From the NCBI RefSeq assembly GCF_041248615.1, contig NZ_CP158425.1: a stretch of 64,000 nt of DNA; one strand, written 5' to 3'. How positions within the stretch are numbered: the stretch's first letter is position 1; each line of letters begins with the position of its first letter. Made by a program: the position numbers. The stretch comes from Escherichia coli. Its GTDB lineage: Bacteria; Pseudomonadota; Gammaproteobacteria; Enterobacterales; Enterobacteriaceae. Positions 6,001-9,000 of this stretch are shown piece by piece.

Positions 6001-9000
6001 CTAATATTTGATTGTAAAGCAAACAACAGAATTTGACTTAAGTCAATATTTAGATTCAGACAAGGCAAGTTTCGCGATATCTTTTTTAAATTTAATCTAA
6101 TTCTTCTTGAGAATACCTCTCTATGGCTGAAGCAGTTGAAGATAATCTGCAACGTGGACAATAAGCATCATTTGTCACTGGCACAATGTATGGGCGTTTA
6201 CATTTTTCGCAGGCACCTAGTTCTTCAATTTCTTTCATAGAAGTAAGGATTTCTATTATTTTATTAACTTCCGGTGCGCATACAAAGTATCCCAGATTAT
6301 GAAGGACACTCATTATTCGGTTGAAGTCAATTTGCCGAAAACTCGCTTCCGGATTTATTGGATCAAAACCAAAATAGTTAACTGCGACATCAATAACAGC
6401 AGAAAAAGCTCGGCGGTTATCTGTGCGTTTGCTCCAGCCCCGGATACCTTTTTTGAGTTTTGTTTTTGCACCAGGCTCAAAATCGATATTTTCAGCAACA
6501 TGATTACCGTACAAAATTCGTATTGTATTTTTATTTGCCCCAAGCGACATAGTCCTTGCTGCTCGCAATAGAGCATTAGCTTTTGTTTGATCGACCTTTG
6601 CCATATTAATAATCCTTTAACATAACTTTATTTGTTAAAGTGTTGAACACATCCTGACGGTGACTGGTGAACATAGTGTCATAACGTAATAGTTCCATCA
6701 AATCATCACTAACTTTTCCTAACCGGATGTCAGCAGACAATTCATAAGCCCAGGCAAAAACTTTCGTTTTAAGTGAAACACTCTCTTCAATATGCCCTTG
6801 TGAGAAAGCAATTGTACGTGGGAAAAGAACGACATCGTTAATTGTTTTTAACGATGAATAACCAATGTCTTTAATAGCATCAGCTGTAGTTGGTTTTAAA
6901 CCAAAGAAAACACTTACAAACTCTGGTGCGAGCATTGAGATAAAGAACACCTGCATAAAGTAGTCATTCTGTATATCAACACATTTAGAACGCAACTCAT
7001 GAATCTTCTTGGGATTATAGATATCCACTGTACCATTCAGAAAAGTCACTTTTTCACCGGCATCGTAAATACCATAGTCAATATCATTTGTATCATATTC
7101 ACGAATTACATTGGAATCACCGTCCAAGACCGCAGAAAAAAACCTCTCCCATGTAATTTCCTTTCCGAGTGTACGCGGAACCAAAAAACTACCTGGACGT
7201 GTTTCCACTTCAAAAGCTAAATCAGCGGCTGTACTAAATCCTTTCCCAAATAGGCGACGCTGGAGAAGAGGAGTCCCAGTTTGATATGCAGAAGATCCAT
7301 GCACAGGCAATAACATTAAAAATGCACGGTAACTACGAATAAGCGAAATCTCAGTGCGGAAAAGTTTACCGAGTAAGCTACGAGTTAAATTATCAGATTC
7401 TGACATGTGCTGATTGTCCTTGCGCCATTACAATTGTTCAAATCTTCAACATGGATTTTTTGTTAGGTGTTCGGTAGGGTGAAAAGTAACTTTTAGTATT
7501 TTCTTAAGGCTTGAATAAGCCTTAAATCTATCCCTTCAACCACACCGCTTACTTGTAACACTTTTTAACCAAACTGACCAGAATTTTATCAAAATTTCTT
7601 CGCATGCTAACGAAATGTGAAGCGATTAAAAAAAAACCTAAATCCAGCCCCTCCCAACGTTGGATTAGAATAACGACGTCTTTCACTGACCGTCATAAAC
7701 TGACATTTTTACTTTTCATCAACCTCATGCTTACATAGGATCACTAAACAAAGAAAAGTGACCCTATGAATGCCTCACATAGGGTCACTTATGTTTGAAA
7801 AGTGACCCTATGTAATGTCGTCATAGGGTCACTTTTTATAAAAGTGTCACTATGGACAAAGTTCCATAGGGTCATTTTTTTTGGAAAAGTGGCACTAGAT
7901 ATATGTATAACTTTAATAGAGCAATGCACATTATCAAAAGCAATAATCCACAATGGTCATTCCCTCAAAAGTAACTTTAGAGGGTAGCGATGGAAGTGAG
8001 GCTAAACTCGCTGTTACTGTTTCTGAAGGCCCCTCCCGAATGGGGGAAACAGCGAGTGCATTACATCTGTTCAATTCCCTCATCAAAGAGCATTCAAAAA
8101 TCTTCTGTTCGTGAAAAAAAACGGAAATTTCCTCCGGTATAGTAATTTCACATCAGGAGGCGTCATGAGTAATTCGAATCTTATAAGTTCTATAGAGCTA
8201 ACACGTAAAAATTTACGTGCTCAGATTGAAGGTTTGCGTGTTGAGGCTGAAGATCTCATTACAAAATACTGGATCAAGTGGAAGGAACGAAACCACCAAG
8301 AGATTAACCTTACCCGACATAGCAAAGTTCCAAAGAGGGAGTATCTGGGTTCTTACGCACCAAAAGTTGAGCTAATTGGTAATGCCAGAAAAGTAACGAT
8401 CACTTGGCATCAGTTCAGCCCTTATAAAACAAGAGCGCCTAGTCACATGTCAAAACGGGTGCAACCAATGAAAAGTGGAAAATATTCTAAGAACTGTTTT
8501 GTAAACCATGCCAGCTGGGAATACGAAATGATTTCTGAAACGGAAGCATTGCTGGAGCCTTACAGAGAAATGCTTGAGCTCTATCATTCAGCATATATCG
8601 AACTTGGACGAAAAATCCGTCAATACTCAAAAACTAAGGTGGCACAATGACCGACGCAATTATCACGGACAATGAGCGTATTAACATTGAACCAAAAGAT
8701 GTAATGGTAAAAGGTTCAAATAAAAAGCAAGGCGTAAACGCTCAAACTTCTACTCAACGTAGACCAGAGCACCAGGGTATGGCCAAAGTTATTATTAACC
8801 CCGGCACCCCAGATTTTAACCGGTTTTTAACTGCCAGAAATGGAGCAGTCATCAGAGGTTTTGATGATGTGAGTATCGCTATTTCCTCTCTCTTTAAAAC
8901 GGTTGATGCAGTTAAACATCCTGACCTTGTTCAGGCTATTCAGGATTGGTTCAACGAGCTGCATGAAGAAAACAATAAGATGAAAGAAAATCTTGTTGCT

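Follow-up and report, generated by a model that had tools for sequence, protein, structure and literature searches.

The DNA analysed here, called the window below, is a stretch of 64,000 nucleotides from Escherichia coli (NCBI RefSeq assembly GCF_041248615.1, contig NZ_CP158425.1). It belongs to an R478-like IncHI2 plasmid. Between its genes trhR and traH lies an array of short sites in alternating orientation, which is best read as the relaxosome-assembly part of the plasmid's transfer origin (oriT). Positions 6000-9500 are identical (100%) in many IncHI2/IncHI2A plasmids of 230-290 kb from Escherichia, Salmonella and Enterobacter, typed MOBH and MPF_F, and about 1,400 PLSDB records match the relevant region. 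The genes around the array are as follows.

3047-4525, minus strand: trhH
4452-5498, minus strand: gene for a TraF-like thioredoxin
6092-6604, minus strand: trhY, second activator subunit, with an FlhC-like predicted fold and an invariant Cys4 motif
6606-7406, minus strand: trhR, one subunit of the TrhR/TrhY transfer activator and a rival candidate for binding the array
7407-8164: trhR-traH intergenic region, 758 bp
8165-8650, plus strand: traH, 161 amino acids, Pfam MobI PF19456 (E 4.8e-22), PGAP name MobI(A/C)
8647-9384, plus strand: ORF245 (245 amino acids, H operon), by position the unnamed R27 H-operon gene R0121
9388-12540, plus strand: traI, MOBH-family (HD-domain) relaxase, NF041494 MobH (E 5.7e-76)
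12540-14624, plus strand: type IV coupling protein (T4CP; TraD/TraG), TIGR03743 (E 2.9e-203)

NCBIfam yielded no model for TraH, ORF245, TrhR or TrhY, a sequence search of the PDB returned no match, and a family match sought for ORF245 was not found. The earlier note had placed the repeats between the mating-pair formation (Mpf) and relaxase operons. The relaxase operon does lie on the right, but the left neighbour is trhR, and the Mpf genes trhF, trhH and trhG are placed further left, beyond trhR and trhY. A MobI-family gene stands directly downstream of the array, which ends 253-266 bp before the traH ATG, and the cognate MOBH relaxase and T4CP are encoded on the same plasmid.

Anatomy of the array

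The sequence GTGACCCTATG-N9-CATAGGGTCAC occurs at 7758-7788 and 7802-7832, both times without mismatch; by chance, 0.01 occurrences with up to three mismatches would be expected per 64-kb window. The arms extend to 15 nt once the A/T tracts are counted (7754-7792 and 7798-7836). The tandem palindromes described earlier were recovered as two perfect copies and an imperfect third, with starts 44 and 43 bp apart; the region is better described as eight 15-bp half-sites (CATAGGGTCACTTTT / AAAAGTGACCCTATG) of alternating orientation, in the order R0 L1 R1 L2 R2 L3 R3 L4, which fill 7734-7899. Their centres are spaced by 20, 24, 20, 24, 18, 25 and 20 bp. Since each step is about two helical turns, the half-sites lie on roughly one face of the DNA. 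The last of them is followed by an invariant element, GGCACTAGATATATGTATAACT, which ends at 7912.

7734-7748: half-site R0, CATAGGATCACTAAA, degenerate in IncHI2 and a perfect CATAGGGTCACTTTT in IncHI1 and island copies; left module boundary
7754-7792: palindrome 1 (L1, R1), AAAAGTGACCCTATG-N9-CATAGGGTCACTTAT; predicted single-stranded DNA hairpin of -13.1 kcal/mol
7798-7836: palindrome 2 (L2, R2), AAAAGTGACCCTATG-N9-CATAGGGTCACTTTT, perfect (15/15); predicted hairpin of -15.0 kcal/mol
7840-7879: palindrome 3 (L3, R3), AAAAGTGTCACTATG-N10-CATAGGGTCATTTTT, imperfect (3/30 mismatches), fixed in position and found in every copy examined
7885-7912: half-site L4 (AAAAGTGGCACTAGA, 7885-7899) and terminal element, together AAAAGTGGCACTAGATATATGTATAACT; right boundary of the island-shared module and candidate nic region

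The module has a GC-content of 36%, compared with 46% in the window, and combines AT-richness with multiple repeats and a smaller core, as MobI-dependent MOBH1 oriTs do. Elsewhere in the window the core 11-mer is absent, bar one chance-level match with a single mismatch inside traI at 10304. The scan covered the window and also the Tra2 region of an identical IncHI2 plasmid (L010), where the AC, Z and AN operons lie together with htdA and both par modules. The array motif is unique in the plasmid DNA examined, 164 kb in all, which takes in the promoter regions of F, AC, Z and AN.

The period of 43-44 bp and the internal inverted repeat recall sopC of plasmid F, and the array might on that basis be a partition centromere or a set of replication iterons. 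The genes for ParA/ParB, ParM and RepB are found elsewhere, in a motif-free region (the par genes at 16.5-23.5 kb of the Tra2 region); the repeats alternate in orientation, which does not suit iterons; and the islands that bear the array (see below) are integrated elements. Because no par or rep genes adjoin the array, we reject both readings as extremely improbable.

Conservation and natural variants

When the intergenic region was aligned with those of four IncHI1-type plasmids (~75% nucleotide identity), the N9 spacers and inter-unit linkers proved scrambled between the two plasmid types and the half-sites nearly invariant. Across IncHI1, IncHI2 and Photorhabdus plasmids and chromosomal islands, half-sites are 93-98% and linkers 36-59% identical, and the terminal element retains 12-14 of 14 positions. 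The spacing pattern 20,24,(20,24,)18,24/25,20 is retained in all copies. The last half-site is always the variant AAAAGTGGCACTAGA, always followed by TATATGTATAACT (TAGATG in one IncHI1 subgroup), and the L site that precedes it has the variant form AAAAGTG(G/T)CACTATG in every case. These fixed variants at L3 and L4 indicate that each half-site is specific to its position and that the array is no homogenised repeat.

The number of half-sites varies among natural copies by exact units, being 8, 6 or 4. Six are present, with one L+R unit missing, in p53EVA-2 (IncHI1B; L005), in a plasmid contig of Photorhabdus tasmaniensis (L013; TraH 86% identical) and in the island copies. The IncHI2 plasmid pM160133_p1 (L019) retains four (R0, L3, R3, L4) and lacks palindromes 1 and 2. 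The distal unit with the terminal element (7840-7912) is common to all copy-number variants; by sequence comparison it is the invariant core, and the two perfect palindromes are the part that some natural copies dispense with.

These variants bear on the possibility that the palindromes act as single-stranded hairpins recognised by TraI itself, as tandem initiation or termination structures. The predicted hairpins of palindromes 1 to 3 reach -13.1, -15.0 and -7.1 kcal/mol (z-scores -3.5 to -9.9), and the MOBH relaxase TraI of the gonococcal genetic island requires a 32-nt inverted repeat beside nic. In that system, however, the structure counts and not the sequence (PMC6736028), whereas here the arm sequence itself is kept, with no compensatory changes. 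Conservation extends to single half-sites (R0, L4) and to "outward" pairs, and the inverted repeat beside the terminal element is weak (-4.3 kcal/mol). Recognition of hairpins by TraI is quite unlikely, because the arms are conserved in sequence and not just in pairing, and because natural variants have lost the most stable hairpins (palindromes 1 and 2).

More distant lineages keep the architecture of alternating half-sites and change the half-site itself; in the first two described here the inner hexamer alone differs and the outer AAAAGTNAC is constant. A metagenomic lineage with 54% TraH identity (L011:3603-3735) has the half-site CATAGTGTTACTTTT, in the form CATAGTGT(T/C)ACTTTT, with the end AAAAGAACCTACTAGATATATATGTAATTAA. 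In Klebsiella plasmids of the IncHI1B(pNDM-MAR) type (38% TraH identity; L008:3586-3720), the half-site is CATTAGTACTTTT, in the form TCATTAGTACTTTT, with the end ...TTACTTATGTATAAGGG. Vibrio parahaemolyticus pVPS92-VEB (L007:3453-3944) carries eight direct AAGTCGGCACCGAACT repeats directly upstream of mobI, at spacings alternating between ~55 and ~88 bp; the mobI product is 31% identical, a MOBH relaxase gene lies downstream and trhR is not adjacent.

Covariation of half-site and protein did not distinguish the candidate binders, because TraH, ORF245, TrhR, TrhY and TraI diverge together. The N-terminal half of the relaxase is the slowest-changing protein (87, 72 and 47% identity across lineages, compared with 76, 54 and 38% for TraH), and the terminal element is likewise the slowest-changing and best conserved piece of the array. 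On this parallel, the nic site is tentatively placed in the terminal element region, 7885-7912. We rejected a sigma-54 reading of the TGGCAC in this element, since it lacks the -12 GC and the lineage with 54% TraH identity has no TGGCAC.

Candidate promoters nearby and copies outside IncHI plasmids

The left 230 bp of the intergenic region (7407-7640) are conserved as a block in both IncHI1 and IncHI2, nearly invariant at 7547-7637. A leftward consensus-like promoter within it, together with its leader, probably serves trhR. Just upstream of traH, some 240 bp away from the array, the conserved sequence …GTTCGTGAAAAAAAA…CGGTATAGT…CATCAGGAGG resembles a promoter and would be that of the H operon.

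7482-7494: 13-bp palindrome AAAAGTAACTTTT, left of the array; dispersed family, outside the portable module
7583-7610, minus strand: candidate R-operon (trhR) promoter, a consensus match only; -35 TTAGCA (7610-7605), 16 nt, TG-TAAAAT (-10 at 7588-7583)
7967-7979: 13-bp palindrome AAAAGTAACTTTA, right of the array; AAAAGTNACTTTT dispersed family

A published oriTfinder prediction for an IncHI2 plasmid (PMC13055346) converts by coordinate arithmetic to 7391-7642, which is the conserved left block and not the array. We take it to be a BLAST segment bounded by similarity to the R27 entry, and not a mapped origin; prediction tools put the IncHI oriT beside the array.

The main rival to a transfer-origin function takes the palindromes as boxes for the TrhR/TrhY activator, which is itself presumed to resemble FlhDC, SetCD and AcaCD, so that the array would be an enhancer or operator for the divergent H and R operons. 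In R27, TrhR and TrhY acting together switch on the operons F, H, AC and Z (PMC7366339). The rival owes its rank to TrhY, a candidate activator encoded next door whose predicted fold is FlhC-like, with the invariant Cys4, in a model of moderate confidence (pLDDT 70). The geometry is close to that of published FlhDC-type sites but not identical: 15-bp arms with spacers of 9-10 bp here, ~16-bp repeats 10-12 bp apart there.

No such site is present at the other promoters activated by TrhR/TrhY (F, AC and Z). The Tra2 region lacks the half-site core, and a relaxed L-N8..12-R search of the F, AC, AN and H promoter regions gave only chance-level matches (13-14/30 mismatches). This absence argues against a common TrhR/TrhY operator. 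Moreover, the array is ~240 bp from the conserved traH -10, at least ~130 bp separate it from the candidate trhR promoter, and a promoter box would not need the whole conserved multi-site geometry and terminal element. This weakens the operator alternative, which we regard as improbable, though less so than the hairpin reading.

A weak site, TAAAATGGAAGGATG-N9-CATAGAGTTACGTAT, was noted in the Z region (L010:21718-21756; 11/30 mismatches), between a leftward four-gene operon (putatively the Z operon) and parM; it is probably a chance match.

The 13-bp palindromes that flank the array belong to a dispersed family, AAAAGTNACTTTT, with 17 copies in the window against 0.43 expected (4422, 7041, 7482, 7967, 11390, 12828, 14558, 19460, 24509, 24635, 37879, 42928, 47140, 51309, 52344, 58061 and 60285) and 14 in the 50-kb Tra2 segment. 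This amounts to about one per 3.7 kb of backbone. Annotated intergenic DNA holds roughly half of the copies, and there they typically stand 80-250 bp upstream of a gene start. The arm of this palindrome is the same as the outer 9 nt of the array half-site. Every IncHI-like lineage has a member of the family on each side of the array; none was found in the island copies or the Vibrio plasmid. AAAAGTNACTTTT looks like a putative operator of a plasmid-wide regulator. The KorB sites of RK2 are comparable dispersed operators.

Two further inverted repeats were observed in the intergenic region. A hairpin reported separately in the earlier note is present at 7507-7524 (AAGGCTT-GAAT-AAGCCTT); its conservation does not extend to IncHI1 or Photorhabdus relatives, and it was rejected as a conserved element and is probably irrelevant. 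Between array and traH, a perfect 10-bp inverted repeat, ACTCGCTGTT / AACAGCGAGT (8006-8015 / 8048-8057, 32-nt loop), is specific to IncHI2 and not conserved in IncHI1.

When species-representative genomes were scanned for the exact palindrome, an IncHI plasmid contig and a 6-kb contig without IncHI genes came up, and the 6-kb contig led to E. coli chromosomes. In two of these (strains EC2001 and LR-33; NZ_CP133811.1 and NZ_AP027523.1), a 20.3-kb element with a 17-bp attR repeat (CCCTTCGCCCGCTCCAA) is integrated at tRNA-Gly; the EC2001 island occupies NZ_CP133811.1, 921104-941428 (L016, L017). It encodes an integrase, two AlpA-family proteins, an Icd-like protein, a TOPRIM/DUF927 primase, SSB, an SLT-domain protein and a YafO toxin, a gene set that resembles a phage satellite. 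Its array comprises six half-sites and the terminal element (L016:9254-9388), ~1 kb from attR. Similarity to IncHI plasmids is limited to these 144 bp (query positions 346-489 only), and the flanks are unrelated (12-22/60 ungapped identities).

The invariant 23-mer matched 28 metagenome loci. Twenty-one are IncHI-type, 19 recognised by tblastn with TraH and/or TrhR and two (L035, L038) by their flanks, the match lying at the contig end. In three loci the array stands beside an alpA2-like gene, and in four it lies in a third context with a different left neighbour. Related non-IncHI copies (L015; L028, L043, L044; L022, L032, L036, L046) occur in at least two further metagenome contexts. Homologues of TraH, ORF245, TraI, T4CP, TrhR and TrhY were not found by tblastn in the island, and the further contexts have none either.

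Between diverged island copies, half-sites are 98% and linkers 59% identical, which means that the sites are under selection within islands too. An intact cis module on elements without any IncHI protein fits an oriT mimic, and mobilisable genomic islands that copy the SXT oriT are indeed mobilised (PMC4542580). On sequence grounds, the 20.3-kb element is a candidate IncHI-mobilisable island. If the sites were TrhR/TrhY boxes instead, the island copies could sense an incoming IncHI helper and, for example, switch on alpA or excision, much as AcaCD boxes in SGI1 serve as helper sensors (an alpA/excision switch). The third context speaks against this, since its different left neighbour shows that the array can stand apart from an alpA start codon.

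Array-bearing E. coli plasmids of 80-150 kb were considered as independent contexts and rejected, being IncHI1 Tra1 remnants with mobI. The 88.7-kb pfosA3 (L018) and similar plasmids carry such a remnant, riddled with insertion sequences (IS), in which trhR is frameshifted, the array and mobI are kept and the downstream ORF is truncated.

Proposed transfer-origin function and related systems

We consider that the array provides the repeated protein-binding sites of the IncHI oriT, which TraH coats and to which it recruits TraI for a nick in or near 7885-7912, and assign this reading a probability of about 60%. The oriT or relaxosome/operator site suspected in the earlier note is supported by gene context, footprint-like conservation, absence from other promoters and capture by islands. 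Sequence comparison adds new support to the transfer-origin reading in the conservation of half-sites only, the lack of the motif at other TrhR/TrhY-dependent promoters and its capture by islands without IncHI genes.

The functional module would span ~7734-7912, eight half-sites and the terminal element. A dimeric or multimeric accessory protein, most probably TraH, encoded ~265 bp downstream, would coat the array cooperatively. TraH would then recruit TraI, in the way that MobI of IncC acts through the C-terminal domain of TraI, and TraI would nick one strand in or beside the invariant element at 7885-7912. TraH oligomers on the phased half-sites may bend or wrap ~170 bp of AT-rich DNA and so deliver TraI to the terminal element. 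The distal unit 7840-7912 (7840-7899 for TraH) would be the indispensable core, and the two perfect palindromes extra sites that boost affinity. With the module acting in cis and its proteins in trans, elements that hitch-hike on IncHI plasmids could pick up a copy of it.

In IncC, MobI self-associates, binds the C-terminal domain of TraI and decides oriT specificity (bioRxiv 10.1101/2025.04.21.649884; PMC7449626). The MOBH11 relaxases of IncHI are said to need the MobI-like TraH (bioRxiv 10.1101/2025.04.21.649884), which has been called a relaxosome protein of R27 (PMC7366339). The TraH model (pLDDT 90) shows an antiparallel coiled coil of some length that carries a three-stranded sheet at one of its ends, a predicted fold that suits oligomerisation. 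A fold search with it returned only generic coiled-coil or prefoldin-like matches and no solved DNA-binding relative, so that binding of the array by TraH is inferred.

Literal sequence searches of the literature returned nothing relevant. Compared with the literature consulted, three points seem new: the resolved architecture, the natural series of copy numbers that singles out a core, and the copies in islands. A wider picture, in which the 145-bp module is a portable oriT on ~20-kb tRNA-Gly "minimal hitchers", TrhR/TrhY is a master activator of the FlhDC/SetCD/AcaCD type and AAAAGTNACTTTT marks a plasmid-wide regulon, is tentative, and as a whole we hold it to be somewhat short of an even chance. 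If it is correct, satellite-like islands without relaxase, MobI or type IV secretion system genes are mobilised by IncHI resistance plasmids. Much of the carriage of mcr, carbapenemase and heavy-metal resistance genes falls to IncHI2 and IncHI1 plasmids. Judging by the island copies, IncHI plasmids may be able to mobilise chromosomal islands in the way known from SXT and IncC elements. HD-domain MOBH relaxases are poorly understood, and the precise module (7734-7912, core 7840-7912) offers a target for nic mapping, for TraH/TraI biochemistry and for searches for hitch-hikers that carry only an oriT.

The locus is orthologous to the oriT of R27 (IncHI1): flanking genes, half-sites, spacing and terminal element are alike in IncHI1-type plasmids, and the IncHI2 linkers, degenerate R0 and flanks differ (75% nucleotide identity). 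The cloned trhR-traH intergenic region was reportedly mobilised by R27 in work by Lawley in 2002, and to our knowledge the R27 oriT has been defined only as a cloned intergenic fragment. Since the array locus agrees with the mapped R27 oriT region, it is of a known kind. An oriT directly beside a MobI-like gene has been reported in SXT, R27 and Rts1.

The IncC oriT is an AT-rich segment of ~150 bp with multiple inverted and direct repeats just upstream of mobI, and a smaller core has reduced activity (PMC5587640). The array resembles the oriTs of IncA/IncC and SXT/R391 in its position upstream of a MobI-family gene, AT-richness, length of ~150 bp, repeats and smaller core. It shares no sequence similarity with that of IncC, where 14-bp, partly overlapping direct repeats take the place of alternating 15-bp half-sites. 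The C-terminal domains of MOBH11 relaxases (IncHI) differ from those of MOBH12 (bioRxiv 10.1101/2025.04.21.649884). Furthermore, mobI is apart from traI in IncC, whereas traH and traI share an operon here.

With the boxes of FlhD4C2, SetCD and AcaCD the array shares long inverted repeats and a spacer of ~10 bp; unlike them, it is a tandem array with a terminal non-palindromic element, far from promoters and absent from the other promoters of the regulon. In sopC of plasmid F, tandem units of ~43 bp each contain an inverted repeat; the array differs in having 2-4 units only, no adjacent partition operon and a linked relaxase operon. The sites of TraM in F (sbmA-C), TraK in RP4 and TrwA in R388 are phased beside nic and bound cooperatively by a small oligomeric protein that contacts the transfer machinery. 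Those proteins are ribbon-helix-helix or tetrameric helical, whereas here a MobI coiled-coil protein is paired with an HD-domain MOBH relaxase.

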